Positions 1 to 63,871 of a stretch of 63,871 nt of DNA are shown here, piece by piece. The stretch is from a virus (taxonomy: Duplodnaviria; Caudoviricetes): the IMG/VR virus record IMGVR_UViG_3300025012_000086, positions 1 to 63,871 of that record; one strand, written 5' to 3'. How positions within the stretch are numbered: the first letter of the stretch is position 1; every line of letters begins with the position of its first letter. The position numbers and the translations under genes were made by a program. The notes below the pieces were generated by a model, which made no database searches, was not told the DNA's origin, and saw only the letters and a program-made list of their open reading frames with translations.

Positions 1-176
1 TGACAGCCAAAGAGGAAGACGTTTCCAGCCAGGTGAAGAGGGAGGAAGCCAGAAAGAAGCTCTTCCCCGAGGAGTGGACCCCGAGGGCTGAGAAAGAACT
101 CCAAGATGCCAAGGCTGCAGCAGCTGCAGTAGCCAGGCCCAAAGTCGTCACCGCCCCAGGGTCGGTTGCTGTCGGC
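1..176 (+). repeat. Flank A, copy 1 (diverged direct repeat of 62940-63115) inside the giant gene
   Basis: Manual codon alignment: 53/58 aa identical, differences mostly synonymous; 35-bp exact run GCTGCAGTAGCCAGGCCCAAAGTCGTCACCGCCCC. Confidence 0.95.
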
Positions 177-3100
177 AGGTATTTCAAGACTACACCAAAT
201 AGCTCGACCATTGAGGTGGCGAAGCTACTTCCCAGGAGCGAACGTATCGATCCTGGGAAATTGGCGTCGGCTCAGTCGTTGATGGATAAAGCGGTAGCTG
301 GTATTGGTCAGAAAAGAGAACCGTTACGAGTTATTAAAAGGGATGACGGGACAATTAAGGTGTTGGACGGAAATACCACCATACACGAGTTGGCGGCTCG
401 TGGTGAGAAATATGCAGAGGTGCAGTTCGTCCAGAAAGCCACACAGGGTAAGTCTGCCAGCAAGAGCATGGATGCTTTATACGATAGCGCCATGGCGGCT
501 GTCGGCTCAATAAATAAGCATGTTGGCGAAATAGCCGAGGAAACTGGTGGGACGGTAAAATTACGCCCGTTCGAGGGTGGTCTTAAGAAAAGAGAGACAG
601 CAGAGCTGAAGCTTAAAAACAAATACGGTGGTAACGTTTCGATGATTGACGATGTGGTGGCGGCAACAATCATCTACAAAGATTACGACCACATGAAGGG
701 GGCTTTTGACAAGATAAAGAAACAGGAGAATGTTCTGTCGTGGAAAAACAGATACGACCAGGAGAGTTTGGGCGGGTATAGAGATATCCAGTTCACTATG
801 ATCGCCGACAATGGGCATATTTACGAGATGCAACTCAACACAGAACCCATGATGCAGGCTAAAAAACAACTACATGCCCTATACAAGGTGACAGGACTCC
901 TGACTCACGAAAATATAGATAGTGAAATAAAAGCATCGGCACTAGACAGGCTCAACGATCTCATGAATTACGGTTATGATGCCGCACTATCATTAGCCAA
1001 TGGTGGCAGTCAGGATGCTGTCGAAGATTTTCGCTCTGAATTATCTGGCATCGCTGAAGATTCGGCAAGAATTTTAAGTTTAGTTAATGAGTCTGTGACC
1101 TCTGACCGTCTCTCCCCGTCAACCAAGAAGATTCTCCTTGATTTTGTGTCCAGAACAAATAAATCACTACCGTCACCTAACAACACTTCCGTTGATACCA
1201 TATCAGACCCCCTTGTCGCTGGCTCTACTCCAGTGAATATTTTAACCAAACAAAATAATAATGTCAACAGAAATCTAAGTGAGGGCCAAGGTGGGCAAAA
1301 AGCTGCCGAGAAAATTGCCCCAAAAACCAGGCAATTTGAGGGCAACAAAGTCTTTACCGCCGACAAGGTGGAGAGCGCCAGGAAGAGCCTCAAGGATGCC
1401 CGTGGTAGGCTGAGCGCCGGAGTTGACCCTGAGCTGCTGGGTCACGTCATCACTATCGGTGGGGCTTATTTTGAGCAGGGCGTAAGGGATTTCGCCGAGT
1501 GGTCGGGCAAGGTGATCGCCGACGCAGGGGAGCATTACCGCAAGTACCTCAAGGAGGGATTCGAGATAGTAAGGAACCATCCTTCATTCTCGAAACAAGA
1601 AAAGAAGATCGGCGATTTCTTTAACTGGGAGCCGCCGACAGACGCCAATGGCAAGATCAAGGGGGCGCCGCCGAACGTCAATTCCAAGGAAGATCTCGAT
1701 AGGATGAGGCTGAAAATCTCACGGCTCCTGAAGGAGGGCGAGGTGGGCCGCTTCTGGTACGAGAATTCCTCCAATGCCATTCTCAAGGCGATGAACGGCG
1801 ACGTAGCCAAGGCCGAGAAATTCATCCAGCTCATAGCCATCTACTCGCCGCAAGCCCAGGTCCAGGCCAATACGGTGTTCGCCGTCAAGGCATGGAACCA
1901 GTTCGTCAACAACGTTCCGAGGGATCAGTTTAAGGTCAAGACCGCAGACCAGGATGGAAAAGCGGTCGATGTTCTCTATGACAACAAGCCATTCGACGGC
2001 AGGAAGACCAACAGTTTCTATATCAATCTCGTCAGCCAGATCATCTACAACGACCCGACAGCCATCGCCAAGATGGACCTCGACTCCTCCACCGTTGCGC
2101 TACTTAAGGAAAAGGCCACAATCGACATGTGGATGAAGCGGGCTTTCGGCTACGACGACATCGTTGTCAGGGACGATAAGGGCACCGGTCAGTACTCATT
2201 CATGGAGAACGAGATACTCAGGGTAACCGATAGGCTGAACGCCAGTCTCAAGAGGGGCGACAAGAAGTGGATTCCGTTCCAGGTGCAAGCCGCTGTTTGG
2301 ACGGCGATGAAGGCCAGGTATGAGGATGCCGTGGTCAAAACCAAGACCTGGAGCGAGTCGGTCAAGAAGGGTTACTCATTTATCGGAGATAACGGCAGGC
2401 CAGAGTTCAAGAAGGACGCAGAGTCACTGAAGCAACACCGTAAGATCTGGCACCGGCAGGCCATGTTACTACCGGCGAGAAAGGCCAGGGAGAATGCAGA
2501 ACTTACCGCAGCAGATTTCTCGACGTTCATCAACAGGGCTACATCGACAATCACCTGGGAGGCGATCCCTAGCTCTTCGTTTGAGTACGATATATTCAAT
2601 GCCTCGCCAGCAGTTAAGCGCATGTTTACTTCTGAGGCTAGGGGGCTGCTGCTGTCGAATGACGGCGCTGACATGTTAGCGCAGAGACTCGGGGTGTCAA
2701 TCTCCTTCGTGAGCGATGGAGCTGGTGCCTACGGTGGTAACGTCAACCCTAACAGTCTCAGCCATGTGGTCCTGGCGAAAGAGGGCGGTGAGTTTGTCCG
2801 CGACAACGCCAGGGATTACGCTCTCGCGATCCAATACATTTTTAAACAGGATGCGGTTCCATGGTTCAGGGCTGATGCGGCTATGCTGTCGAAGGTCAAT
2901 CAGGATAAGCAGAAATTCCGGGTGGTCAACGAGAGGGGCACAACTATCTCACGTCACAATTCCCTGGCCGAAGCCCAGGCTGCAGCGGCAAAACGCGGTG
3001 AATCATTCTCCGTGAAGGGCGGTAAATATGCTCGGGGTGTGGTGGTAGAATTCTCGGAAAACATCACAGAAAACCTAGAAAATAAAGTCCTGGCAGCACT

Positions 3101-6100
3101 CGGTGAAGGAGCTGGATTTACTAGGATTTCTAACAACCAGATCGCGATAATAAATTTCAGGGACGACTCGACGGGTGTGCCGTTCGTAGATGACGAAACT
3201 TTCATGGGCGGGGTCCAGTCATTCCTCGACAACCATGGTGCCGATCTCGGTGTTGCCGAGGCGAAATCCATGTGGGCCGAAGGGGAATATGGATACGTCC
3301 ACAACTGGAGCGAAGACGGTAATGGCGAAACGATTCTCGATAAAGGAAGCATCGGTGAACGATCAGATCTACAACGGTGGCTTCGTGATAGGCGGTCAGA
3401 CTTCGAAAGTCTTATCCAGCAATACTCGGGCGAAAACCTCAAGCTCCGTGAGCAAGAAGTCAAGGAATTCGAAAAGCTCGGTGGAATAAAATTCCAGGCC
3501 ATAGAGGTTTCAATCCCCCTCGACTCAGACGGAAATATGAACCTGGTTCACTGGTCACCAGTTCCAGGTATGAAGACTATTGATCCAGACAGATACGGAG
3601 AAGGCATTTCAGGGGCCGAGGCGAAGAGACAGCATGCCGATCCAGACAACTGGGTCAACAGGACATATTACGGGATAGGGGGCGGTGGATACCGCAAGGA
3701 AGTGGGCCTCGGCCAATACCGATACGAGGCCAAGGTTCCTCCCTCGAAGATGTACGATTTTGCCAAAGACCCAGAAGGGCTTAGAGCTAAAGCTCAGGCG
3801 GCTAGGACACAGAATCCATTCATTAATGCTACCAACCTGTACGAGAAATTCATCAAGGACGCTGGATATCTTGGCTACTGGTCAGACATGAATGGTGGAA
3901 AGGTGGCTGCTATTTTTGGCAAGATCACCCCAACCAGGGAGACATTACAACCAGAGGCCGGGGTTAAGCTGCAGGCTGGACTTGGTAAACTCTCTTCAGG
4001 GCTTCCGCGAACAGTATTCGATAGCCTCCTCTCTAGCCTAAGCCCTGGCCAAAGGAGTGTGGCATCCAAGCTGGTAAGCAGCGGCAAGGTGGTGCTTATG
4101 ACAACCGACGAAGCCATAGCCGAAGCCAAGGAAGCCGGATATTCCAAGGCCGAGCTTGATGCAAATCTCGTGCCAATCGGAATAGAGATTCCCGGAAAAA
4201 CCATACTGGTTCCCGAGAACATCCCCAGCGGCGAGTTATGGGGGTCACTGCGTCACGCAATAGGCACCCATATCGGCAGGATGATGGCCAATAGCGCTGA
4301 ATTCCAGATGATGAAGAAAACCATCGATAGGCGGCGCGGAGAAAAGTCAGACACCGGGGATGCTATCAGGCGGGCAATCGAGCAGATTCCAACCGGCACG
4401 GCCAAGGAGGATTTCAGCGAGGAGATCCTTGCCTACATGGTGAGTACGTCAGAGGACGTCGGGATCGTCAGGCGCATTATTGCGATGATAAAAAGTATGG
4501 TCACGCGCTTCGGAGTTTCGTACAAGATCTTCAACGAGAAGGACTTCAAGGCTCTGGCGGATCTCGCGATCAGGAGGGAAGCACGCAGTGACAAGCCGAC
4601 AATGTTTGACATCGAAGGGATAAAGTTCCAGATGGCTGGCAGGGAAAGCCTCACCACCGGCATCAATATGAGAGACGCCAAAATCTTCCTACGAGATAAA
4701 GGCGTACAGTTGAGTAACGTAGAGCCAGACGATTATCTTAAGCTCGCAGTGTCTCACGGCTACCTCAAGGACGAGGGCAAGCAGCTTTCCCTAATGGAGA
4801 AAGCCCAGGCGATGAAGGAGGGTGGTGCTGACAGGAAATCGATATGGGATGAAACCGGCTGGTGGGAGATGGTTCCAGGTGAATGGCAGTACGAGATTGA
4901 CGACTCCACCGGTAAGTGGGACGCCAGGACTTGGGGCATGATGAAGCCCAATGCAGCCGTGCCTCTTCCTGAGGTTTACAATAATCCACCGCTGTTTAAG
5001 GCGTACCCGTATCTCAAGGAAGTGAGGGTCATTGCAGCGAAGCTCGATCAGGGCCATCTCGGCGGCTGGGACCAGGAGGGAAATATCAGAATCAATATAA
5101 CCCTGTTTGACCCAGCAGCAAGAACAGTCCTTGAGCACGAGATGCAGCACGTCATTCAAGATATCGAGAACTTCTCGAAGGGCGGAAACGTCGCCAATCA
5201 GATCAAGAAGAACCAGGATAAACTCACTCAGCTCGATAGGCAGATAGCCAGTATCAACGAACAAATGTCGTGGATCGCAGCAAACGGGCCACAATACCAG
5301 GGCCAGCTCGTACCTGAGGCCAGGAAGCTCTACGATTCCCTCATGGAAAGCCGAAGCGTACTTGGCGCTGAGTGGGTCGTACTGTCTGGCAACATCAACA
5401 GTATCAGCCACAACGAATACAAACGGTTGACGGGTGAGGTACAGGCCAGGCTGACACAGGCCAGGCTTGGCATGTCGAAAGCGGACAGAAAGAAACATCC
5501 GCCGTGGGAGACTCTTGAGGGAATGCTCATGGGTGAGGGGCTGATGGGTATGAATCAGAAGCCAGAGGATATCCTCATCTCCCGGAAGGACGCTACTTCC
5601 GCAGGTTGGGCTGACTCATACACGCCTACCCCGGCAGTCGGCTCAGTACATCCTGCAGTGACCTTCCTGGATAGGATGGCCAATACAGTTGATTTCAAGG
5701 GCAAGTTTGACGAGATCGCCACCTACTTCTGGAACAGGGATAAAGCGATTGAGCGGGTGCAGGAGAGTATAGGTCCGCAGCCAATCGAGCGGGATCATGC
5801 CACCCTGAAAGGCCTTGTCGGCAAGATTATGGCCAACGACGTTAAGCAGTTTGACAAGAATGTCCTGCAGCCGTTCCTCGATTTCCTGGCAAAGCACAAG
5901 ATCTCTATCCAGGATGTTGAGGAGCTGGCACATGCCCAACACGCACCTGAACGCAACCTGCAGATGCGCCGGGTAAACGCCAGGCGGTACGTTGACAACC
6001 TCCTTATTTTCATGACCGACGCCGAGAAGCGCCCGTGGCAAGACAAGCTCGGGCTTATCCAGGATGAATTCGTCATGAACGACCAGACCAGAAACAAGAG

Positions 6101-8537
6101 GCGCGACAACACAATTGCCCTGGTTGAGGAGATGGCCGACACCGTGCGGAGTCAGCGGGCGCAGGTTGACCAACTCGCCAAAGAATTTGCCGCTAGGGTC
6201 TTCACCGCTGAAGAGATCAAAAAAGGCACACCGGAATTCCTGCAAAACCGTCTGCTCAATATGTATGAGAGGCTGGAAAAACGCGAGTCCATTATCGCCC
6301 ACTGGGATGATGTCAAGGGTAGACTCTCGGGAATGACAAATGGACAGGCCAGAGCTATAGAGGACAGATTCCAGGGAAGACAAGAGGTTTACCGGGCAGC
6401 AGAGATGATGCGGTCAATCAGTCGTGCCGCTCTCGATATCAACCATGAGGCAGGGGAACTGACCGATGACGAGTACTCGGCGATCATCGGCACCTATCAG
6501 TACCACGTGCCCCTCATGAGGGAAGAGGCCGATGAAGGGAAGACGCCAACCGGCAAGGCCGGGGTAGGGCCACTTGGCAAGCCGATAAAGATCGCCTATG
6601 GATCTACCAAGGGCGTGGCGCACATACTTGGCCACGTGGTTGACAGATACCAGTCCGCCCTCACACGGAGGCGTAAATTAGAGGCTGGAAGGGCGCTGTA
6701 CGAGATGGTGAAACAAAACCCTGATGAAGGTCTATGGTCAATCGGCGAGCTTGAGAAGGCCCCATATCTCGATAACGAGGGCAATGTCAGATTCTACCCG
6801 GACCAGCAGCTGGACCCGAAATACCAAACCTACGTCAAGGTCGATGGCGTCAAGCACATTATCGAGGTGGCGAAGGATAACCCTATGGCGGTTCGCTTCA
6901 TGGAGGCTATCAATCGCCAGGTCACCCCGCTCGGTCCAATTATCAGGGCGTCTGGTCATGTCACGAGGATACTCGCCAGGCTGTCCACCACATGGACCCC
7001 AGAGTTTACCCTGCCAAACTTTATCCGCGACTTACAGACAGCCATGGTCAATATGTCATCGACCGAAGCAGCTGGTATGCAGTCGAAAGTATTCGGGAAT
7101 ATCCGTAGCGCTGTTGCTGGTATCTACCGCGAGGAGCGCGGGAAACCTTCAGGCCAGTGGGGCGCTATCTACCGTGACGCTGCAGAGAACGGCGTCATTA
7201 TGGGATGGATGCGGTCGTATGATGACGTGGCCCAGTTGTCAGAGAAGATCCAGTCGGACCTTGAGATGAAGAAGGGCGGGCACAAGATCAAGGAGAACTT
7301 CATGCGTCTCGGTAATTTTATCGAGAGCGTCAACCTATCTGTCGAGAACGGCGTCAGGGTGGCAACATATCAGGCCCTGGTAGAATCAGGGATCGACAAG
7401 CGTAACGCGGCCCGTATTGCCTCCAACCTGACAGTTGATTTCACGAAACACGGTACGGCAGGGCCAGCGATGAACTCGCTCTGGATGTTCGCCAACGCCG
7501 GAATACAGGGCAACGTGCGGATACTACAGGCCGTAACATCCTCGCCGACTGTCAGAAAAACGGTAGTTGGTATCGCTGCATTTGGAGCATTCGCAAGCTT
7601 CCTTGGCGCTATTGCTGGCGGTGACGACGATGACGGGGAGTCCTACTATGATAAGCTGAAGCGGACAAACCCGGCGCTGTTTGAGCGCAACATAGTGCTC
7701 ATGGTTCCCGGTGGCGAGGGCAAACATATCAAGGTTCCTATGGCCTACGGGTACAATATCTTCTTCAAGTTTGGCGAAGAGATAGGTAGCGTCATGCGGG
7801 GGCAGAAGCCCGTAGAGGCGGCTATCAGATGGGGCAAGGCCTTCATTAATAACTTTAACCCACTGGCCGCTGGCACCATCCTGCAAACCGTGGCACCTAC
7901 CCTTCTGGACCCGCTTGCCCAGGTAAGAGAGAATGCTGCATGGCACGGTGGTCCTCTCATGCCTGCCGGTAACCCGTGGGCGAATCAGCCAGACAGCGAG
8001 CTTTATTTCAAAGATGTAAACCCGGCGTCTAAGGCGGTGACCGAGTGGCTCAATAGACATACCGGTGGTAGTAAGTACCGGGAAGGGGCGATCTCTGTTT
8101 CGCCCGAAACTATCGAGATGCTGGTCGAGACATTTACTGGCGGTGCCGGTAAGATGGCCAAAGACGTACTGAATCTTCCGTTCGCAGTAGCAGATGGCGA
8201 TCTGTCGATCCGAAATGTCCCAATAGCCAGGAGGTTGATAGGCACCATGCCCACAGGAATAAACCGTCAGATCTACTTTGAGAACCGCGAGGAGATGAGC
8301 ACCTTCGTTCGCGAGCTGAAGAGTGCAACCAAGGACGACAGACCAGGACTGATTCGCGAGCCGCTATACAAGATGGTCGGTGCCTTTGAGAGGACCGAAG
8401 AGAGAATCCGGGATCTCAATAGGCAGAAAAAAGAGATCGTCAGTAAGAAGGGCAATACTGATAGGATCGATAAGCTGATCGAGGACGCGCAAGTCGATTT
8501 TAATAAAAGATACAACAAGGCCCTTGGCCGAGATTGA
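3..8537 (+). CDS. Giant polyvalent virion/ejection protein, 5'-truncated (ParB-like, RelA/SpoT-like, HhH glycosylase-like, ART-like, LPD23 + zincin MPTase, C-terminal LPD38-like)
   Basis: Frame open from base 3; motifs VLDGNT, LKKRETAELK/IDDVVAATI/GYRD/EMQLNT, WY..YSPQ..KT.SFY..TIDMW..QAAVW, LVHWS..RTYYG, IWDETGW..WQYEIDD, HEMQH..GEVQAR, IKVPMAYGY; last gene of the ejection-protein cluster. Confidence 0.85.
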   Translation, partial: TAKEEDVSSQVKREEARKKLFPEEWTPRAEKELQDAKAAAAAVARPKVVTAPGSVAVGRYFKTTPNSSTIEVAKLLPRSERIDPGKLASAQSLMDKAVAGIGQKREPLRVIKRDDGTIKVLDGNTTIHELAARGEKYAEVQFVQKATQGKSASKSMDALYDSAMAAVGSINKHVGEIAEETGGTVKLRPFEGGLKKRETAELKLKNKYGGNVSMIDDVVAATIIYKDYDHMKGAFDKIKKQENVLSWKNRYDQESLGGYRDIQFTMIADNGHIYEMQLNTEPMMQAKKQLHALYKVTGLLTHENIDSEIKASALDRLNDLMNYGYDAALSLANGGSQDAVEDFRSELSGIAEDSARILSLVNESVTSDRLSPSTKKILLDFVSRTNKSLPSPNNTSVDTISDPLVAGSTPVNILTKQNNNVNRNLSEGQGGQKAAEKIAPKTRQFEGNKVFTADKVESARKSLKDARGRLSAGVDPELLGHVITIGGAYFEQGVRDFAEWSGKVIADAGEHYRKYLKEGFEIVRNHPSFSKQEKKIGDFFNWEPPTDANGKIKGAPPNVNSKEDLDRMRLKISRLLKEGEVGRFWYENSSNAILKAMNGDVAKAEKFIQLIAIYSPQAQVQANTVFAVKAWNQFVNNVPRDQFKVKTADQDGKAVDVLYDNKPFDGRKTNSFYINLVSQIIYNDPTAIAKMDLDSSTVALLKEKATIDMWMKRAFGYDDIVVRDDKGTGQYSFMENEILRVTDRLNASLKRGDKKWIPFQVQAAVWTAMKARYEDAVVKTKTWSESVKKGYSFIGDNGRPEFKKDAESLKQHRKIWHRQAMLLPARKARENAELTAADFSTFINRATSTITWEAIPSSSFEYDIFNASPAVKRMFTSEARGLLLSNDGADMLAQRLGVSISFVSDGAGAYGGNVNPNSLSHVVLAKEGGEFVRDNARDYALAIQYIFKQDAVPWFRADAAMLSKVNQDKQKFRVVNERGTTISRHNSLAEAQAAAAKRGESFSVKGGKYARGVVVEFSENITENLENKVLAALGEGAGFTRISNNQIAIINFRDDSTGVPFVDDETFMGGVQSFLDNHGADLGVAEAKSMWAEGEYGYVHNWSEDGNGETILDKGSIGERSDLQRWLRDRRSDFESLIQQYSGENLKLREQEVKEFEKLGGIKFQAIEVSIPLDSDGNMNLVHWSPVPGMKTIDPDRYGEGISGAEAKRQHADPDNWVNRTYYGIGGGGYRKEVGLGQYRYEAKVPPSKMYDFAKDPEGLRAKAQAARTQNPFINATNLYEKFIKDAGYLGYWSDMNGGKVAAIFGKITPTRETLQPEAGVKLQAGLGKLSSGLPRTVFDSLLSSLSPGQRSVASKLVSSGKVVLMTTDEAIAEAKEAGYSKAELDANLVPIGIEIPGKTILVPENIPSGELWGSLRHAIGTHIGRMMANSAEFQMMKKTIDRRRGEKSDTGDAIRRAIEQIPTGTAKEDFSEEILAYMVSTSEDVGIVRRIIAMIKSMVTRFGVSYKIFNEKDFKALADLAIRREARSDKPTMFDIEGIKFQMAGRESLTTGINMRDAKIFLRDKGVQLSNVEPDDYLKLAVSHGYLKDEGKQLSLMEKAQAMKEGGADRKSIWDETGWWEMVPGEWQYEIDDSTGKWDARTWGMMKPNAAVPLPEVYNNPPLFKAYPYLKEVRVIAAKLDQGHLGGWDQEGNIRINITLFDPAARTVLEHEMQHVIQDIENFSKGGNVANQIKKNQDKLTQLDRQIASINEQMSWIAANGPQYQGQLVPEARKLYDSLMESRSVLGAEWVVLSGNINSISHNEYKRLTGEVQARLTQARLGMSKADRKKHPPWETLEGMLMGEGLMGMNQKPEDILISRKDATSAGWADSYTPTPAVGSVHPAVTFLDRMANTVDFKGKFDEIATYFWNRDKAIERVQESIGPQPIERDHATLKGLVGKIMANDVKQFDKNVLQPFLDFLAKHKISIQDVEELAHAQHAPERNLQMRRVNARRYVDNLLIFMTDAEKRPWQDKLGLIQDEFVMNDQTRNKRRDNTIALVEEMADTVRSQRAQVDQLAKEFAARVFTAEEIKKGTPEFLQNRLLNMYERLEKRESIIAHWDDVKGRLSGMTNGQARAIEDRFQGRQEVYRAAEMMRSISRAALDINHEAGELTDDEYSAIIGTYQYHVPLMREEADEGKTPTGKAGVGPLGKPIKIAYGSTKGVAHILGHVVDRYQSALTRRRKLEAGRALYEMVKQNPDEGLWSIGELEKAPYLDNEGNVRFYPDQQLDPKYQTYVKVDGVKHIIEVAKDNPMAVRFMEAINRQVTPLGPIIRASGHVTRILARLSTTWTPEFTLPNFIRDLQTAMVNMSSTEAAGMQSKVFGNIRSAVAGIYREERGKPSGQWGAIYRDAAENGVIMGWMRSYDDVAQLSEKIQSDLEMKKGGHKIKENFMRLGNFIESVNLSVENGVRVATYQALVESGIDKRNAARIASNLTVDFTKHGTAGPAMNSLWMFANAGIQGNVRILQAVTSSPTVRKTVVGIAAFGAFASFLGAIAGGDDDDGESYYDKLKRTNPALFERNIVLMVPGGEGKHIKVPMAYGYNIFFKFGEEIGSVMRGQKPVEAAIRWGKAFINNFNPLAAGTILQTVAPTLLDPLAQVRENAAWHGGPLMPAGNPWANQPDSELYFKDVNPASKAVTEWLNRHTGGSKYREGAISVSPETIEMLVETFTGGAGKMAKDVLNLPFAVADGDLSIRNVPIARRLIGTMPTGINRQIYFENREEMSTFVRELKSATKDDRPGLIREPLYKMVGAFERTEERIRDLNRQKKEIVSKKGNTDRIDKLIEDAQVDFNKRYNKALGRD
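1010..1201 (-). CDS. Nested antisense small protein (63 aa), candidate antitoxin/immunity for the RelA/SpoT-like domain
   Basis: ATG at 1201, AAGGGGG SD 6 nt upstream, sigma70-like promoter at 1239-1267; MVSTEVLLGDGSDLFVLDTKSRRIFLVDGERRSEVTDSLTKLKILAESSAMPDNSERKSSTAS; function inferred. Confidence 0.65.
   Translation of the reverse strand: MVSTEVLLGDGSDLFVLDTKSRRIFLVDGERRSEVTDSLTKLKILAESSAMPDNSERKSSTAS
1239..1267 (-). promoter_or_regulatory. Antisense sigma70-type promoter embedded in coding sequence
   Basis: Minus strand TTGACA-ttattattttgtttggt(17)-TAAAAT. Confidence 0.75.
1295..1520 (+). repeat. Flank B, copy 1 (repeat of 63646-63871; last 99 bp identical)
   Basis: Both encode ..KTRQFEGNKVFTADKVE.ARKSLKDARGRL.AGVDPELLGHVITIGGAYFEQGVRDFAEWSGKVIA; 1422-1520 = 63773-63871 exactly. 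Confidence 0.95.
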
Positions 8538-12464: not shown

Positions 12465-12973
12465 ATTGACCTTTGTAATTTGAATTCAGATTTCTTTCCA
12501 CCTATGAGCACGGCATGACGTATGAGAATGGCGTCGGCAATATGCTCAAAGTCCTTCTTAAATTTCGGGAAAGCTGCATGCGGGTATTTGGCCCTGGCCC
12601 AGTTCATCACGTCGTCCTTGTCGGCCATGCTATCGTGGAGTACCCTCTTCTTGGCCTCCCGTGGGTATACCCCAGTGATAGGGATGTTCCTGGAGTCGAT
12701 CACGCCAATGACTACTCCAATTGCCAGGTACATGGTGGTGCAGGCCTTGGACGACAGTGACCCGGTCGGAAATTCCATATTGACACCGGATACATCCATG
12801 AGTAGGTCGCGAACGCTGACGGTCAACTCCGAGGCATTCAAGGCGTATCCGGTGCTTACGTCGCAGCACCCGCATTCTACGATTCCTATGCATCCGAAGT
12901 CGGCCAGGCACTCCTCCTCCCAGAGCGCCCAGCCGGTATGTCTCAGTGCAACGTCGAGTGACAGGTATCTCAC
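12461..12973 (-). CDS. RuvC-like Holliday junction resolvase
   Basis: LSLD....TGWA, central E, K..V, HIADA. Confidence 0.75.
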   Translation of the reverse strand: MRYLSLDVALRHTGWALWEEECLADFGCIGIVECGCCDVSTGYALNASELTVSVRDLLMDVSGVNMEFPTGSLSSKACTTMYLAIGVVIGVIDSRNIPITGVYPREAKKRVLHDSMADKDDVMNWARAKYPHAAFPKFKKDFEHIADAILIRHAVLIGGKKSEFKLQRSI

Positions 12974-13818
12974 TGCAGATCCTCGTAAGTCTCCTGGAGA
13001 ACCATCCGATCCTTCACACCAGCCAGGGACATGTTGACGCCAGACGGGAGGAGTATAGCCCTTACATCGTGGGCCTTCGACGGAAAGCCAGCAGCGGCCA
13101 GCACGGCCAGGGCGTGGATCACACCGGCAGCGAAGCCGTCATTGTAGATCGAAATCAGCGATGGGCTGTCCTTCGGAATGACGTCGTTGATTGAGGCCTT
13201 GGTCTTTCCCTCGTCCTTGGCCTTCTCGACAGCCTCCTCAATCCTCTTCTCGCCATCCTTGGCACCGTGCTTCCTGATAGCGCGAGCCGCCGTAGTAGGA
13301 GACACCTCGCCCTTTACGATCATCTCAGTGACCGCTGGCGACGCAGACGAAAGCGCCAGGATATCCTGCAGTTTCGACGGAGAGAAGCCGGTCTTGGCGC
13401 AGATCTCTTTCGAGGTCCAGCCGAAGTCGAGAAGCTGACGCACCGGCCTTGCCATCTCGTGAGGGGTAAGTGGTTTGCCGCCATTACGGACAAGCATGGA
13501 AAAGATGTGTTCGGCGGGCGTGGCATGGCGATCCTCTACGCGCACCGGGACTCGTTTGATTTCCGCCCCCTCAGAAAGCGCCAGGTTGACCGCTGCTAAA
13601 CGACAGTGACCGTCCGTGACTATGGGTACATCTCCGTCCATGCGCACCGTGAGGGGCTGTTTGACGCCAACCTCCTTGATACTGTCGGCCAGCTCCCTGA
13701 TATGCTCACGAAGAGCCGGGGTATCGTCACGGACATTCCACCCAGGTTCCTCCCTGAGCAGTAGCGGGTTGATCCAGAACTCGTCCTTCCTGTCGGCAAT
13801 ACTCTTGATTCCAGCCAT
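12970..13818 (-). CDS. ParB/Srx-like protein with HTH
   Basis: LADSIKEVGVKQPL..TDGHCRLAA; HTH GWTSKEICAKTGFS. Confidence 0.8.
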   Translation of the reverse strand: MAGIKSIADRKDEFWINPLLLREEPGWNVRDDTPALREHIRELADSIKEVGVKQPLTVRMDGDVPIVTDGHCRLAAVNLALSEGAEIKRVPVRVEDRHATPAEHIFSMLVRNGGKPLTPHEMARPVRQLLDFGWTSKEICAKTGFSPSKLQDILALSSASPAVTEMIVKGEVSPTTAARAIRKHGAKDGEKRIEEAVEKAKDEGKTKASINDVIPKDSPSLISIYNDGFAAGVIHALAVLAAAGFPSKAHDVRAILLPSGVNMSLAGVKDRMVLQETYEDLQ

Positions 13819-16430: not shown

Positions 16431-17321
16431 TTAATATATTTCACCACCCTGGATCTTAAACAACTTGGCATGGAACGTCCCGTTGCGGCCATAGTCAACA
16501 GTGGCAAAACCCTGTGACCAATTGTTGAGTGGGGCGTAGTCCATTGGTCCGCCCAGATATCCGACAGCGCCAACCCATAGCGTTGACCCGTCTATTCGTT
16601 TGAATATTTTTTCCTGCACCCTGTGATGGTGGCCAAAGATGCAATGGTCGAGGACATATTTGAACATGACGTTGGTGACGTAGTCAGCGTTTCCACCAGT
16701 AGGTTTCTCGTGCCCGTGGAGATACCAAAGTTTGCCGATAGAGAAGAAGTCCTTGCGGTATTCGATATCGAGGGCGCTAAGGTCCAGCTTATTGATCAAC
16801 AGATCATCCACTAGGTCTGCTATTTCCACAGCGTTTTCCAGTACGTAGCGCTCAAGGTGGCTCTCGTGGTTACCCTCCTTGAAAATCATCTTAGCCTTCG
16901 GGTGTCGCTTGCGCAGATCGGTTAGGAATTCACGCCCCATTTTCAGCTCGCCCTTGATATCGTGCTTCCCTGTCTTCTTGGTGAATCTTGAGCACTTGTA
17001 AAAGTCCATCATGTCGCCGTCGATAACTATGGTGTCTGGCTTGTACTCATCAGCATAGCCGAGGGCTGCGTCAACAGCTATCTGGTCGTGAAAAGGGATG
17101 TGGATGTCGCAAATCAAAAACACCTTCTGACCAACGAATGAATTATCGTTCTGTACCTTCAGCTGAATTATATCCTTATGCTTCAAACCCCAGTCGTATA
17201 GACGAGCCTGTGCCGTACTACAGCCCATTGTCTCTCGTATCTTGTTGCGGGAAAATATTTCATCCCGCCTTCTGAATTCCCTGTCAAGGGCTATAAGGTG
17301 CTGCCATTGGCCTCTATCCAT
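16431..17321 (-). CDS. Calcineurin-like metallophosphoesterase
   Basis: DIH, GD..D, GNHE, HGH, GHHH motifs. Confidence 0.9.
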   Translation of the reverse strand: MDRGQWQHLIALDREFRRRDEIFSRNKIRETMGCSTAQARLYDWGLKHKDIIQLKVQNDNSFVGQKVFLICDIHIPFHDQIAVDAALGYADEYKPDTIVIDGDMMDFYKCSRFTKKTGKHDIKGELKMGREFLTDLRKRHPKAKMIFKEGNHESHLERYVLENAVEIADLVDDLLINKLDLSALDIEYRKDFFSIGKLWYLHGHEKPTGGNADYVTNVMFKYVLDHCIFGHHHRVQEKIFKRIDGSTLWVGAVGYLGGPMDYAPLNNWSQGFATVDYGRNGTFHAKLFKIQGGEIY

Positions 17322-17847
17322 TTGTCTTCCCCCGAAATTGTTTTATAAACGCTGCAGCGGACGAGTTGTTGTCGTCATACGGGAAACCGAGACACTGCTC
17401 TGCGGCATACCTATGACATACCGCTTCGGCGATGTCGTGGAATCTGCCAAGGAACACCTGCTTGCCATGGATGGCTATTTGCGCCTGCCATCTCCCCCGG
17501 CTTCTGCATATTCCACAGACCCCAGTAGTGTTGTTGCTGTTGAGGCTTCTGTTTCTCTGCTGCTGCTGGTGTGTCACAACCCGCAAATTTTTACGCCAAT
17601 TATGATGCCTAATTCTGTCTTCATGGTCAACGGTGTCACAGTTATCAATATAACCATCGGTATATATTATAGCTAGTCGATGCGCACCATACATATAACC
17701 ATCTATTTTCACAACAACATATCCATCGCTATTAACACAACCTGCGACTTCACCAACGGTAGCGCCGTGAACATACTTTCTCCACGTGAACAAGCCAGTG
17801 TTCATGTCGTAACAAAGTAGCTCCCTCAACCTGTCTTGCGTTATCAT
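17314..17847 (-). CDS. HNH endonuclease with AP2-like domain
   Basis: AHRLA..DHEDR...N...NLR..N.TGV.G. Confidence 0.85.
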   Translation of the reverse strand: MITQDRLRELLCYDMNTGLFTWRKYVHGATVGEVAGCVNSDGYVVVKIDGYMYGAHRLAIIYTDGYIDNCDTVDHEDRIRHHNWRKNLRVVTHQQQQRNRSLNSNNTTGVCGICRSRGRWQAQIAIHGKQVFLGRFHDIAEAVCHRYAAEQCLGFPYDDNNSSAAAFIKQFRGKTNG

Positions 17848-19574: not shown

Positions 19575-19681
19575 CAGAACACGAACGATACCAGGCCAGT
19601 GGCGATACAGGCGACAATTACCAGGAGTGTCCAGCCGATGTCGGCCCATCCGTAAATCCCAAACTCAGCAAGCTTTTTCAT
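19574..19681 (-). CDS. Small membrane peptide (35 aa)
   Basis: Coupled starts/stops, MKKLAEFGIYGWADIGWTLLVIVACIATGLVSFVF. Confidence 0.45.
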   Translation of the reverse strand: MKKLAEFGIYGWADIGWTLLVIVACIATGLVSFVF

Positions 19682-20118
19682 CTTCCCTCCTTCTCTGCCT
19701 GTTCCAGCATAGCGTTCCACATCTCGTCCTCGTTTGGCTCGGGAATGTAAAGGCTCAGGAACTCCGCAGCAAACTGTATGATCTGCCGGTAATAGGCTAT
19801 GAACTCCTTGGTTGACAGTGAAGTTGTTGACTTCACGGTGGGGATCGGCCCCTTGTCATAGGACTTCAAGAACTTATCTTTAAAGAAGGCGTGGATTGAT
19901 TCCTTCTCCTGCCCGGTAAACTCGGAGATCATCTTATATGGTCCGCCGAACAGATAGCTATTCTGCTGGATCGATCTCTTCTTCTTTTTTGGACCGACAG
20001 TCATGGTCACTTCAGTTCCCTCGAAAATCTTCAACGCAGTCGTCCAGTTATACCGATTACTCGGCACGAAAGCGCCATCCTGGATACCACCATCAACTTG
20101 TACGTCACGTTTTCCCAT
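19678..20118 (-). CDS. NinB/YbcN-like recombination protein
   Basis: KRSIQQNSY..STTSLS.KEF..Y...I. Confidence 0.7.
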   Translation of the reverse strand: MGKRDVQVDGGIQDGAFVPSNRYNWTTALKIFEGTEVTMTVGPKKKKRSIQQNSYLFGGPYKMISEFTGQEKESIHAFFKDKFLKSYDKGPIPTVKSTTSLSTKEFIAYYRQIIQFAAEFLSLYIPEPNEDEMWNAMLEQAEKEGR

Positions 20119-20140: not shown

Positions 20141-20212
20141 AATATACCGGGCAGGAAAGATTGTGTCAAGATAAAAATAACCGTTGACATTTTTTTTTAT
20201 TGGTGGTAAGAT
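20141..20212. promoter_or_regulatory. Divergent sigma70 promoters
   Basis: Leftward TTGACA-17-TATATT (20169-20141); rightward TTGACA-17-TAAGAT (20184-20212). Confidence 0.8.
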
Positions 20213-23489: not shown

Positions 23490-23834
23490 CTACTGAACTA
23501 TCTCATTCCCCCAGTTTTCCCAGGAGTGGTCGATCATGATTTCTTTCGGCGCGACTCCATAGCCGCCATCGGTGATCCACCACGGCATCGAGTCAACCGG
23601 CACCAGGAAGAATTCGTCAAGCTTCTCGTGTCGGATAGTCTGTCTGAATTGCACATCACGTTCACGCCTGTCGTTATCAATCCATGCCGGTGGTTTGATC
23701 CCCATTACTCCGTGGACCCAAAGCCACTGATCGAGACGCCTGCAGCACAGGGTCATGTTGGCCATTGCCGTCCCGACGATATGTTCACGCTTGACCTTCT
23801 TTGTAGGTGCCGGTAAGAGGATGATGTCGCCCAT
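23490..23834 (-). CDS. Hypothetical protein with own promoter
   Basis: GGAGG SD, promoter and terminator flank it. Confidence 0.65.
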   Translation of the reverse strand: MGDIILLPAPTKKVKREHIVGTAMANMTLCCRRLDQWLWVHGVMGIKPPAWIDNDRRERDVQFRQTIRHEKLDEFFLVPVDSMPWWITDGGYGVAPKEIMIDHSWENWGNEIVQ

Positions 23835-23890: not shown

Positions 23891-23919
23891 ATTATATACC
23901 GATATAACTTCTATGTCAA
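23891..23919 (-). promoter_or_regulatory. Perfect consensus sigma70 promoter
   Basis: TTGACA-17-TATAAT on minus strand. Confidence 0.85.
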
Positions 23920-35583: not shown

Positions 35584-35954
35584 GAGATCCCATAGACATC
35601 AACAGGGTAATTCACAAGATGTGGCCAGACAAGTACCGGGTGAACGCCAGGATCAGCGTCAAGAGCTACGTTCGCCACATGCCCGACATCGACAAGGAGA
35701 TCCGCGCCATGCTTTCCCACGGCATAGCCGACGCCTTAGTTAATCGCCTGAAGGACGGCGGATTTTTTGAGCGCATTATCCCGGACCATGATAGAGTGAA
35801 TTGCAAATACTGCAGAGAGGAAGAGTATTCGTACGGCCCTCGCGCCGTGGACTGGAGAGACGATATCCTGTACCACGGAGAGGTATACGCGTTCACCAAA
35901 GAGGAGCTGAGAGAATTCCTGGTGGCTGTGTTAGGTGAGGCCCTATCGGAATAA
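35580..35954 (+). CDS. Hypothetical protein
   Basis: ATGA coupling. Confidence 0.55.
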   Translation: MRDPIDINRVIHKMWPDKYRVNARISVKSYVRHMPDIDKEIRAMLSHGIADALVNRLKDGGFFERIIPDHDRVNCKYCREEEYSYGPRAVDWRDDILYHGEVYAFTKEELREFLVAVLGEALSE

Positions 35955-36376
35955 TGGGATTCGTTTACGCTATTCATCATACGCCTACTGGTTCAAGGTA
36001 TATCGGCAGCACGGTAAACTTCGCCAGGCGCACCAAGGACCACGTCAACAGGCTTCGCAGTGAAAGGCATCATTGCGAGGCCCTGCAGTCGTTATGGAAT
36101 TCCTGTGCGCAGTCCGAATTCGAGTGGTATGTTATCGAGGAAACTGATCGGCACGAGGAGCGGGAACAGTTCTGGATAGACTTCTTCGGCGAAACCCTCA
36201 ATACCATTAAGATAGTTGGTGAGGTTCCGACGTGTCGCCGTAGGCCTAAGCCAGCTAAAGCTGAGTCCAGGATTGATCGATGGCGCAAGAAGGAGGCTGA
36301 CAGGCTCGAAAGAGAGGCTATGGCCGAAGTTGAGATGTATGTTAGGTACTTCCCCGATAGGTGCCGAACCAAGTAA
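35954..36376 (+). CDS. GIY-YIG endonuclease
   Basis: GFVYAI....YIGST....R...H..L..HH..LQ..N..REQ.WID..N. Confidence 0.85.
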   Translation: MGFVYAIHHTPTGSRYIGSTVNFARRTKDHVNRLRSERHHCEALQSLWNSCAQSEFEWYVIEETDRHEEREQFWIDFFGETLNTIKIVGEVPTCRRRPKPAKAESRIDRWRKKEADRLEREAMAEVEMYVRYFPDRCRTK

Positions 36377-61099: not shown

Positions 61100-63871
61100 A
61101 TGATCCCATTCGAGCAGATCGAAGGCCTACCTGAATATCAGAGTGCCACCCCGGAACAAAAGCTCTCAGTCCAGAACGAATACGCCAAAGACTTCTGGAC
61201 TGAGGTTTATCAAGACCAGGAATTCCAAGCAGCACCAGAAGAAGAGCGGAACCAGCTGATCAGCACTTTCGACCAGCGTTTCGGCCCAGACGTCCGTGGT
61301 TTTGTAGAGGAACAGATCGAGGGAAGCCGTCGAGGGTTTCTGGCGAATATGTTCGCCCTCGTGAAGTCCGGTGGAAAGGCGACTCTGGCAGCTTCCAGGA
61401 TTGCCGACGACATGGCCAGCGGTGAGCTTGACAGCAATACAGCCTCCATCCTGGCCGAAAGCATCCTTGCCGAACAGAAGAAATATACCCCGGAAGAATT
61501 GCGAGAGCTACAGGAGGCAGTGGTCGAGCCGTCCGAGGAATGGGAGAAGGCCGAGGGCCTTAGCGAGAAAGCCAAGGCCGCATGGGACATGATCAAGGCT
61601 GTTGCCGGTCAGGCTGCTTTCAACCCCAAGGGCATGGCCTATATGACCGCCGAGCAGGCTGGCAACATCGTTCCTGGTATGGCCGGTATGGTTGGCGGTG
61701 CGAAGGCTGGGGCCGGTGTCGGTAGTGTCGTTCCAGGCGTAGGGACAGCCGCTGGCGCGACGATAGGCGGTGTCGTAGGTGGCTTTCTTGGACAGTGGGG
61801 GATCGAGGCTGGATCTGAATTTCGTGGCATGGTGGCACAGGAATTGCAGAGACGAGGCCTGCAGCCAACCGAGGAGAACGTCCTTGAGATACTGGCTGAC
61901 GATAAATTCGTTGAGGAGTCAATCGATAACGCCAGGGATAAGGCCACGGCCACATCCGCCGTAAGCGCAGCAATGAACGTTGCCACCGGCAGGATTGCCT
62001 CCGTCCCTTTCAAGGCAGCGCAAAAAGAGGCCATCGCCAGATTGGGTGCCGATGCTACGGCTGACCAGGTCAGTATGGCCACCAAGGAGATCCTCGCCTC
62101 CAGGACACTGACGCAGCGGGCAGCTACCGGCGCAAAGGCCTACGGAGCACAGGTTGCCGAGGAACCATTATCAGAGGCCGCTGGCCAATATGCCGGATAT
62201 GGCAAGGTTGATCTGGGGGAAGTTGGCCTTGAGACTCTTGGCGGCATAGGTGGATCTGTCGCAGAAACGCCAGCAGCCATCTCTTCATTCGGTGAGGGCG
62301 TCAAGGCTGGCACTCAGCAGCAGGCACCTCCTCCACCCCCTGAACCTATTGATGTAAAACCGGTCGAGCCGGTATCTATTCTGGCCGCAGAGAGCCTTGA
62401 GGAGGCTATAGGCGCTTTCAGGAATTCCCTCAACGTGAACCAGGAGCCAACTCCAGGAGCAGAGCCAATAGCGACGCCGTGGGGAACAACCGCAGAGGAT
62501 TCCGCCAGAGTATTCGAGGAGGCTGGTATCACTCAGGCCGAAGAAGACATAGCGGCGCGTGAGGCCGAAGGCGACATAAGAACAAGGAGACAGGCCGACC
62601 TTGAAGAGGCGTTTGCCGGGGAGTTACAGCCGTCATCTGCGCAGGAATCAGCCGAGGTGTTCGCCGCCTCGCCAGAGACAGGTCTTGAGCAGAAGCTTGG
62701 CCGGGTCGAAGAGGGTGCAAAATTCGCCGGTACTGAATACGCTAAGCCGCCAGTGGCCAAGACCGAGAGGCGTGAAGCTGCGGAGGAGGCATTCACGGAA
62801 GCGCCTGCAGAATTTGCCAGATCGAGCGGTGCCCCATTTTCGAGCGAGAAGGCCCTCAGGACGAGCGCTAAGCAACGCGGGGTGGATCTATCAGGTTACA
62901 ACGTGATCGAGCGACAGGGTGGCTTTGTGGCTACTCCTGTGGCAGCTAAAGAGGAAGACGTTTCGGCGCAGGTAAAAAGGGAGGAGGCTAGGAAGAAGCT
63001 GTTCCCGGAGGAATGGACCCCCAGAGCCGAGAAAGAACTTCAGGACGCCAGGGCTGCAGTCGCTGCAGTAGCCAGGCCCAAAGTCGTCACCGCCCCTAAG
63101 TCAGTTGCTGTCGGCCAGGAAGTTGCAGTGGAGCCAACCGAACCGCAGAAAGAGGCCGGGAATTATAAAAAAGCACATGTCTCTATCGACGGCCTTGATA
63201 TCAGCGTGGAGAATCCGGTAGGCAGTGTTCGTAGTGGAATCAGCAAAGAGGGCGAGCCGTGGTCAACCGAGATGAAGAGCGACTACGGATATGTCCGTGG
63301 AACCAAGGGGTACGACAAGGATCATCTCGACGTATTCATCAAGCCAGGCCATGCTGGCGGAAGCGAGAATGTCTTTGTCGTCAACCAGTATAACCAGGCT
63401 GGGAAATTCGATGAACACAAGGTCGTGCTCGGTGCTCAATCCGAGAGAGAGGCCATGGAGATCTACAACTCCAACTATGCGAAAGGGTGGACTGGCGGAA
63501 AGTCGGTAGTCTCTATGCCGATGGCCGAATTTAAGGAGTGGTCTAAGAGTGGGGGGCCTGCTCGTGGCGCTCTTACACAGGGGGCGGTCAAGACCGAACC
63601 CACCAAGGCCGAGCCGCAGGAGGCTGACGTTGCCGAGATAGTAGAGCAAAAAACTGCAGAGAGAATTGCCACAAAAACCAGGCAATTTGAGGGCAACAAA
63701 GTCTTTACCGCCGACAAGGTGGAGAATGCCAGGAAGAGCCTCAAAGATGCCCGTGGTAGACTGGGCGCCGGGGTTGACCCTGAGCTGCTGGGTCACGTCA
63801 TCACTATCGGTGGGGCTTATTTTGAGCAGGGCGTAAGGGATTTCGCCGAGTGGTCGGGCAAGGTGATCGCC
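61100..63871 (+). CDS. N-terminal part of giant polyvalent protein (924 codons, runs off the end), with InPase domain
   Basis: Not in ORF track; ATG 61100 MIPFEQIEGLPEY..; 63116-63645 encodes AGNYKKAHVSIDGLDISVENPVGSVRSG..W...M..DYGY..GT.G.D.DHLDVF..FDEHK. Confidence 0.85.
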   Translation, partial: MIPFEQIEGLPEYQSATPEQKLSVQNEYAKDFWTEVYQDQEFQAAPEEERNQLISTFDQRFGPDVRGFVEEQIEGSRRGFLANMFALVKSGGKATLAASRIADDMASGELDSNTASILAESILAEQKKYTPEELRELQEAVVEPSEEWEKAEGLSEKAKAAWDMIKAVAGQAAFNPKGMAYMTAEQAGNIVPGMAGMVGGAKAGAGVGSVVPGVGTAAGATIGGVVGGFLGQWGIEAGSEFRGMVAQELQRRGLQPTEENVLEILADDKFVEESIDNARDKATATSAVSAAMNVATGRIASVPFKAAQKEAIARLGADATADQVSMATKEILASRTLTQRAATGAKAYGAQVAEEPLSEAAGQYAGYGKVDLGEVGLETLGGIGGSVAETPAAISSFGEGVKAGTQQQAPPPPPEPIDVKPVEPVSILAAESLEEAIGAFRNSLNVNQEPTPGAEPIATPWGTTAEDSARVFEEAGITQAEEDIAAREAEGDIRTRRQADLEEAFAGELQPSSAQESAEVFAASPETGLEQKLGRVEEGAKFAGTEYAKPPVAKTERREAAEEAFTEAPAEFARSSGAPFSSEKALRTSAKQRGVDLSGYNVIERQGGFVATPVAAKEEDVSAQVKREEARKKLFPEEWTPRAEKELQDARAAVAAVARPKVVTAPKSVAVGQEVAVEPTEPQKEAGNYKKAHVSIDGLDISVENPVGSVRSGISKEGEPWSTEMKSDYGYVRGTKGYDKDHLDVFIKPGHAGGSENVFVVNQYNQAGKFDEHKVVLGAQSEREAMEIYNSNYAKGWTGGKSVVSMPMAEFKEWSKSGGPARGALTQGAVKTEPTKAEPQEADVAEIVEQKTAERIATKTRQFEGNKVFTADKVENARKSLKDARGRLGAGVDPELLGHVITIGGAYFEQGVRDFAEWSGKVIA
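62940..63115 (+). repeat. Flank A, copy 2
   Basis: Diverged repeat of 1-176. Confidence 0.95.
63646..63871 (+). repeat. Flank B, copy 2
   Basis: Repeat of 1295-1520; terminal 99 bp exact. Confidence 0.95.

Follow-up and report, generated by a model that had tools for sequence, protein, structure and literature searches.

The window analysed here, the whole of virus record IMGVR_UViG_3300025012_000086 (63,871 bases), carries helicase, primase, terminase, tail and tail-fibre genes. It opens inside a very long plus-strand open reading frame (ORF), with Pfam matches to LPD38, LPD23 and DUF7178 and a PHROG assignment to DarB-like antirestriction proteins. The length of at least 2844 residues, the combination of LPD38 with LPD23 and the surrounding terminase, tail fibre, helicase and primase genes identify the product as a large polyvalent protein. 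Its N-terminal part sits at 61100-63871, and the record is therefore circularly permuted. Close to the start of the window this gene contains a short module with a ParB/Srx-like domain and a RelA/SpoT-like toxin domain, behind which a small gene with control signals of its own lies on the opposite strand (Table 1). This nested antisense gene, its reality and the probable function of its product are the subject of the present report.

The stretch 177-1294, referred to as Cassette A, is a portable in-frame cassette that is polymorphic in the population. One contig of run X1 links position 176 to 1295 through 530 other letters (depth 16.2), a second contig carries 128-1350 in the Cassette A form (depth 12.2), and the replacement sets the limits of the cassette at exactly 177 and 1294. 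Its G+C content is 0.454, compared with 0.535 in the rest of the gene. At the other end of the window both flanks are present a second time, with an insert of 526 bases (Cassette B) between them. The window ends are thus alternative versions of one site of the polyvalent gene, one with an inorganic pyrophosphatase (InPase) cassette and the other with the ParB and Tas1-like cassette, and therefore the nominally linear record merges two co-existing variants. The flanks of the two versions have diverged by 15% on the left and 4% on the right. The exact replacement and the InPase cassette at the same site bear out an earlier sequence-only reading of this DNA, which had spoken of a variable cassette and of a portable module inserted in frame. 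A contig of run X5, from another study, covers 1-2400 with 15 differences in total (the first one listed at 1554) and matches the window letter for letter from the left flank through the cassette and into the right flank; by this identity the cassette may have spread recently across diverged backbones.

Table 1. Positions of the features at the two versions of the polyvalent-gene site in the window
Feature	Position	Strand	Basis
C-terminal 2844 residues of large polyvalent protein (virion-associated, DarB-like)	3..8537	+	Pfam, PHROG
Cassette A, swappable in-frame low-G+C module in part of the population	177..1294	+	run X1 contigs, G+C
ParB/Srx-like domain (cassette residues 5-90)	189..446	+	AlphaFold2 pLDDT >90, structure matches
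Predicted Tas1-family toxSAS (RelA/SpoT-like pyrophosphokinase) domain (cassette residues 95-280)	459..1016	+	profile, AlphaFold2 fold
Nested antisense gene, 63-aa protein, proposed Tis1-like immunity protein	1010..1201 (stop included)	-	ATG 1201, TGA 1012-1010
Plus-frame read-through over nested gene and control region, Ser/Thr/Asn/Lys-rich poorly ordered spacer	1010..1294	+	pLDDT
Shine-Dalgarno AAGGGGG, 6 nt ahead of ATG	1208..1214	-	sequence
Sigma-70-type promoter-like TTGACA-N17-TAAAAT, ending 37 nt ahead of ATG	1239..1267	-	sequence
Second copy of left flank	62940..63119	+	85% identical to 1-179
Cassette B, alternative cassette at the same site, InPase domain	63120..63645	+	PF18823, E 1.1e-51
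Second copy of right flank	63646..63871	+	95.6% identical to 1295-1520

The nested unit consists of a -35 hexamer TTGACA (1267-1262), a 17-nt spacer, a -10 hexamer TAAAAT (1244-1239), a Shine-Dalgarno (SD) sequence, an ATG and a 63-codon frame closed by a stop, and each of these elements lies on the minus strand where the sequence-only reading had placed it. With a score of 11 of 12, the promoter-like site ranks first among the 9 sites that the first 9 kb contain; across the whole window and both strands, sites of at least 11/12 number four, the nested one included. Complete units, defined as a promoter of at least 11/12 followed by SD, ATG and an ORF of at least 50 codons, occur three times in the window, and the other two precede ordinary early genes (23490-23834 and 19678-20118). 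Near-consensus sigma-70 promoters of the early/replication region stand at 23891-23919 (minus, 12/12), 20141-20169 (minus, 11/12) and 20184-20212 (plus, 10/12), in two divergent intergenic regions ahead of a gene for a 114-aa protein, a NinB-like gene and the helicase-primase genes. Between the nested promoter and the SD, an inverted repeat of 7 pairs followed by ATATTTTAAC at 1216-1236 (plus) was flagged as a terminator-like element within the giant frame. Read on the minus strand, the repeat would place a hairpin within the 5' leader of the small gene; by eye, the relative L002 does not conserve it.

The same arrangement recurs in distant relatives. A first DNA pattern (K/R-V-x-D-G-N-T-T) led to 41 loci, with the module in only 4 of them. 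A second pattern, taken from the RSH core and hence blind to the small gene, led to 30 viral loci, all 30 with the RSH domain and eight with the full module (seven distinct, as L054 and L057 gave identical results, and two equal to L002 and L003). Together with the window, L009 and two bacterial loci (L082 and L084), these seven make 11 distinct modules. Every one of the 11 has an SD, an ATG and an uninterrupted small-gene frame at the homologous place, always in the same antisense phase, with nested ORFs of 59-76 codons in the ten modules for which lengths are listed (all except L084). A promoter-like site of 9-11/12 with a 17-nt spacer is present in seven of the nine viral modules; L062 has a perfect TTGACA with a weak -10, and L009 has only TTGACT with a poor -10. 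The relatives L002/L053 (59% protein identity) and L003/L056 (66%) repeat the layout of -35, 17 nt, -10, 37 nt and ATG, although over those 23 codons the plus-strand proteins of the window and L053 are only about 40% identical (counted from the codon table), with insertions and deletions on both sides. Among the modules, identity of the plus-strand protein is as low as about 25-35%.

The plus-strand product of the cassette belongs to a large set of proteins. A search of 1.84 billion representative proteins retrieved 1161 relatives at E <= 0.001 and 184 at E <= 1e-10, many of them embedded in proteins of 1000-5900 residues. AlphaFold2 applied to an alignment of 20 sequences (A2) gave a model with a predicted local distance difference test (pLDDT) value of 80.9 and a predicted template modelling score of 0.76. 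The N-terminal domain matches in structure a Pyrococcus protein, the serine kinase SerK, SbnI, Noc and ParB (Z 10.6-8.4), and in profile SbnI (E 3.4e-6). The following domain, already described as RelA/SpoT-like by the sequence-only reading, has a Pfam RelA_SpoT match of E 6.7e-5 (23.6 bits, under the 27-bit cut-off) and, in the model, the RSH synthetase fold, with Z 14.3 to SAS1 (5ded_H), 14.1 to Tas1 (6ox6_A) and 13.2 to CapRel (7ztb_B) and Foldseek E-values of 8e-7 to 1e-6. Its structural alignment to Tas1 shows 25% identity. Tas1 is also the closest solved relative by profile: A2 against PDB sequences finds 6ox6_A with E 2.2e-21 (80 bits), which betters the next PDB sequence, SaSAS (E 8.7e-9), by thirteen orders of magnitude. 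Residues K137, K145, D159, G200, G213, E217, K229 and Y236 are invariant in 20 of 20 A2 sequences, Q219 is kept in at least 90%, and the E-x-Q of A2 lines up with the E-I-Q of Tas1; D159 and E217 we take to be the Asp of the G-loop and the Glu of the ExQ motif, the catalytic acidic residues of the synthetase site. By profile and predicted fold, the domain is a Tas1-family toxSAS, and its product is most likely (p)ppApp, made from ATP at the cost of draining cell ATP.

Behind the toxin domain the order of the plus-strand protein decays, with two helices at cassette residues 279-326 (pLDDT 52-69) and disorder at residues 331-373 (pLDDT <50), and relatives with the RSH domain alone stop at profile position about 270-290, without this spacer stretch. 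The antisense protein, by comparison, reaches 88-92 over its residues 11-50, which fits the earlier remark that the Ser/Asn-rich linker is shaped by the antisense gene. A plus-strand motif P-S-x-S-K-N-x-S at the end of the module (A2 columns about 385-400) is widely conserved, and its DNA is that of the N-terminal strands of the nested protein on the opposite strand; the motif may in addition serve the big protein itself, perhaps as a site of processing.

For the small protein, AlphaFold2 on nine sequences predicted four beta strands and then a helix (pLDDT 78.6), a model more confident than that of the plus frame over the same DNA. Among 48,161 representative chains the best structural match of this model is Tis1, the immunity protein in the Tas1 structure (6ox6_B; Z 4.5, root-mean-square deviation (rmsd) 4.2 Å, 55 of 76 residues), and Foldseek on 350,542 chains placed Tis1 second, with the highest probability (0.72), a TM score of 0.53 and an rmsd of 3.0 Å. 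Both comparisons used one model, and weight lies only in the rank and identity of the match; the rank carries weight because Tas1 is the closest solved relative of the toxin. The small gene stands directly behind the Tas1-like domain in 11 of the 11 full modules with DNA. Prediction of a complex between the toxin domain (A2 residues 88-285) and the small protein (alignment A4) scored 0.01 against a mark of 0.32, a result that weighs neither way.

Copies of the small gene are also found apart from an intact toxin module. A profile of nine peptides matched 37 proteins of 48-124 aa at E <= 0.01 (among 874 candidates), including WP_028323126.1, a RefSeq hypothetical protein of the isolate Desulfatirhabdium butyrativorans, and two proteins from metagenome-assembled genomes (MAGs). 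Eight small-gene loci were taken from bacterial genomes. In two of them (L082 and L084) the small gene is nested in an open frame of 1219 or 1696 residues with the full module; at the remaining loci, similarity of the opposite strand to the module profile is confined to the segment over the small gene. At L079 the small gene stands within a run of co-directional small genes, at L083 it follows two plus-strand genes, and at L081, in a Desulfobacteraceae MAG, two convergent copies (2923-3216, plus, and 3648-3911, minus) occur without a toxin. The L081 copies are flanked by a DUF29 gene and an MmeI-like N6-methylase/restriction gene, a setting that resembles a defence island. Whole-genome search of five bacterial genomes gave 12 small-gene matches (two partial), all of them stop-free, with the full module at two and a stop in the opposite frame at three of these places. 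One remnant (G001:C11:45281-45821) retains the ParB-like part (profile 1-85), 65 bases and then the shadow of the small gene (profile 267-331); it has lost the RSH core, and its big frame is interrupted by a TGA while the small gene is intact. Copies outside the module show conservation at the protein level, and the gene is present in seven of 201 sampled genomes of the same order as the bacterial carriers. The small protein family thus exists apart from the toxin. Toxin-less copies in bacterial genomes are usual for immunity genes, and the present case suggests that those in Desulfobacteraceae-type genomes are anti-phage immunity genes.

Taken as a whole, the assignment of the toxin to the Tas1 family by sequence, the weak top structural match to Tis1 and the toxin-less bacterial copies lend indirect support to the immunity function proposed by the sequence-only reading, and we consider it probable that the nested gene codes for the antidote of the neighbouring toxin domain. 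A number of observations weigh against this interpretation of the locus. The Z of 4.5 for Tis1 lies under the guide values of the tool, with five other rows of the structure comparison within 1 Z unit of it, and the Foldseek E-value of 1.3 is weak. Profile A6 (28 sequences) yields no match to Tis1 or any other solved chain in PDB at E up to 10, Pfam gives the small protein chance-level matches only (best E 0.017) and no family, and ESM Atlas has no usable match for it. In the L009/L082 subgroup the promoter-like site is poor (8/12), and the promoter is therefore not universal. Downstream of the small ORF, the minus strand shows no terminator-like site. A hidden Markov model (HMM) of the small protein detected no homologue within 1.5 kb of the 22 RSH-only relatives, and the small family is therefore tied to the module, not to the toxin family at large. 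Furthermore, no antidote might be required for a toxin that is produced late in lytic growth.

In the RSH-only relatives the toxin domain is C-terminal in a protein of 286-590 aa and is followed by ORFs of 56-86 aa, which start 13, 38 and 14 nt before the end of the toxin gene in L052 (1779-1973), L061 (1059-1265) and L067 (1811-2029) and 61 and 21 nt after it in L059 and L070. A W-x-[DE]-[VI]-x-D ... I-S-E-E motif can be seen by eye both in these ORFs and in the nested family; an hhalign comparison of the two (probability 1-1.5%, P 0.035-0.05) does not confirm it. The nested-protein HMM detects nothing in the loci of these small ORFs, and their own profile does not find Tis1.

The most serious alternative is that the nested gene is real and selected and its product has a role other than that of antidote, for instance in regulation, in superinfection exclusion or anti-defence, or as a companion of the ParB-like domain that simply travels with the cassette. 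The missing sequence link to any immunity family, the weakness of the Tis1 match and the varied settings of the toxin-less copies, from the operon of small genes at L079 to the neighbourhood of DUF29 and MmeI-like methylase genes at L081, would all be in keeping with such a product. This alternative nevertheless appears unlikely to us, given that the gene sits right behind the toxin domain in every full module, that it outlasts the RSH core in one remnant, a pattern typical of degraded toxin-immunity loci, and that the structure search over 48,161 chains ranks first the immunity protein belonging to the toxin's closest solved relative.

A more radical alternative holds that there is no antisense gene and that the ORF is a shadow of the plus frame, its motifs being by-products of a Ser/Pro/Asn-rich linker with [M/I]-x-x-P-P ... 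N-I-T ... V-N. An antisense stop is possible only at Tyr, His or Gln codons of the plus-strand protein, and the antisense frame of 1013-1201 remained open in 1000 of 1000 synonymous-codon shuffles. The same phase across the gene holds 60 stops in 2845 codons, with stop-free runs of up to 197 codons. The open ORF alone is no evidence because the plus-strand protein forces the frame open, and it was rejected as an argument for a gene. The two frames share their third codon positions, and therefore a conserved plus-strand protein automatically yields a conserved antisense peptide, which renders ordinary dual-frame comparison of non-synonymous and synonymous change (dN/dS) powerless here; in addition, the plus-strand motifs recur in distant homologues.

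The expression signals, however, are a different matter. A complete unit arose in three of 1000 synonymous shuffles of the gene. In a test of each viral module with 2000 synonymous shuffles and the plus-strand protein fixed, a promoter-like site that equalled or bettered the observed one, plus SD, ATG and ORF in the homologous zone, appeared eight times for the window, 5 for L053, 58 for L056, 10 for L055, 9 for L054, 0 for L078, 4 for L060, 3 for L062 and 115 for L009; the lineages share ancestry, and these counts are not independent trials. At a plus-strand identity of 25-35%, unselected synonymous positions should be randomised. The plus-strand codon under the -35 is GTC in nine of nine valines (GTC makes up 0.20-0.49 of Val codons), the other two modules having GGC and ATC. 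The plus-strand CCTCC, which reads GGAGG on the strand of the small gene, is present in nine of 11 modules over Pro-Pro, Thr-Ser or Ala-Ser, against a base rate of CCT of 0.11-0.36 of Pro codons. Since synonymous codons are fixed, the plus-strand motifs [M/I]-x-x-P-P and V-[N/K] of distant homologues are most readily understood as the imprint of the antisense ribosome-binding site, start codon and -35, and the opposite explanation, that the conserved hexamers merely reflect plus-strand peptide motifs, was rejected by these codon tests. Selection thus acts on the antisense signals independently of the sense protein. As the small ORF is moreover intact where the plus frame is broken or the big gene absent, and has a confidently predicted fold, the shadow explanation is strongly disfavoured. 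Distant recurrence, shuffles, codon choice and copies outside the module together uphold the earlier claim of an antisense gene with a host-type promoter, and sequence comparison makes it very probable that the nested gene is real.

That the promoter mainly yields an antisense RNA controlling the polyvalent gene, by transcriptional interference or pairing with the mRNA over the toxin part, with the peptide secondary, is very improbable: it would suit a promoter that faces against a long late gene and transcription that, for want of a terminator-like site, may continue antisense to the RSH region, but it leaves unexplained the conserved SD and ATG, the protein conservation outside the module, the confident fold and the copies in co-directional operons that have no such promoter.

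For an antidote of the toxin domain, which we favour, the locus would work as a self-contained toxin-immunity cassette within the reading frame of a phage polyvalent protein. Proteins of this class are packaged and ejected with the phage DNA. Along its last ~95 codons the cassette would contain, as reverse complement, a small gene in its own right together with its control region; the big protein would read through these codons as a disordered spacer rich in Ser, Thr and Asn. Such read-through is possible because the frames share third codon positions and the composition of the small protein keeps the opposite frame stop-free. The 63-aa product would bind the toxin domain and block it as Tis1 does Tas1, via occlusion of the acceptor site. 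The nested promoter resembles the early promoters of the phage (12/12 at 23919 and 11/12 at 20169), and host RNA polymerase would therefore make the antidote independently of late transcription. Any cell that harbours the phage genome would then also have the antidote, whereas a newly infected cell would meet the ejected toxin first. Transcription, translation, binding, neutralisation, enzyme product, ejection and timing are steps that we infer here from sequence and predicted structure. The antidote could act during virion production, as the sequence-only reading proposed, or as a timer once the toxin has been ejected into a new cell, or else against related phages where a cell already carries the phage genome. 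A fuller scenario, in which antisense nesting makes the toxin portable by packing both partners into a single in-frame piece that any ejected polyprotein could accept, the ejected Tas1-like domain immediately drains ATP in the new host and blunts ATP-dependent defences, the antidote from its early-type promoter then turns the toxin off and permits replication and the toxin-less bacterial copies serve as defence, is put forward as a tentative and rather doubtful extension.

Several parts of this picture have precedents. Tis1 is the product of a separate neighbouring gene, whereas the proposed antidote gene of the cassette is nested in antisense within the toxin-bearing coding sequence; in further contrast to that pair, the small protein and Tis1 have no detectable sequence similarity, delivery would be by phage ejection and not by a secretion system, and a ParB/Srx-like domain is always ahead of the toxin. 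The immunity genes of pore-forming colicins occupy the opposite strand under a constitutive promoter of their own, so that immunity is independent of toxin induction. As for likeness, Tas1-Tis1 is a type VI secretion pair of a (p)ppApp-synthetase effector and its immunity protein, according to the available text of its description (PDB 6OX6; PMC11782079), and hence also a delivered toxin with a private antidote; the partner is small in both cases (a 76-residue chain for Tis1, 63 aa here and 59-76 aa in the other nested copies). According to the same source, Tis1 or Tis1-like domains neutralise those toxSAS enzymes that produce (pp)pApp, and they do so by occlusion of the acceptor site (PMC11782079). 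Other toxSAS modules, FaRel/AT2faRel with a Tis1-like domain, FaRel2/ATfaRel2 and the fused CapRel, likewise pair an RSH-fold toxin with a small structured neutraliser, but the FaRel antitoxin genes flank the toxin in one operon, the CapRel antitoxin is fused in cis, and none is said in the available text to be antisense within the toxin frame (PMC11782079). In modular pyocins the immunity gene is transcribed against the toxin gene, yet bacteriocin immunity genes, in the accessible part of that source (PMC5358913), lie downstream, outside the toxin coding sequence, and here the toxin-bearing ORF reads through. RelA/SpoT, InPase, ParB-like and LPD38 domains are described as domains of phage-type polyvalent proteins, with RelA/SpoT also in fusions to MuF (Iyer et al. 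2017, PMC5512222). That work concerns the same class of giant multidomain proteins, the same domains and their shuffling among relatives; in its available text, however, the terms 'antisense', 'overlapping gene' and 'opposite strand' have 0 occurrences, and it names no immunity partner, no exchange of cassettes within a population and no nested gene.

The toxin family, its polyvalent-protein setting, Tis1-type immunity and opposite-strand bacteriocin immunity genes downstream of the toxin are therefore already known. A full-text literature search (about 1.7 million PMC articles lay outside its coverage) returned no nested antisense antidote gene inside a toxin-bearing ORF conserved across distant phages or prophages, no in-population in-frame exchange of a toxin-antidote unit, no such small-protein family or toxin-less copies of it, and no paper on (p)ppApp in polyvalent proteins.

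Elsewhere in the window, side observations include a gene for a ParB-like partition protein (12973-13818, minus), a GIY-YIG homing endonuclease gene (35954-36373, plus) and an HNH endonuclease gene (17317-17847, minus); no integrase was seen among the 57 window ORFs scanned. The window has no blastn match in the phage collection, and single-protein scans gave no close relatives in viral or genome contigs.

Bacteria and phages offer few cases, and disputed ones, of a conserved protein-coding gene antisense to another. The case described here offers a clear functional rationale, recurrence in distant relatives and, in the copies that lack the sense gene, natural controls. A new small-protein family, at present annotated as hypothetical (59-81 aa among 28 aligned copies, 48-124 aa among the database matches), is thereby defined, and annotators are warned that opposite-strand genes may be concealed under Ser-rich 'linkers' of polyvalent proteins. 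The arrangement would explain how a phage tolerates a potent ATP-draining toxin built into a virion protein, and would show how toxin cassettes can be exchanged in frame without the antidote being left behind.

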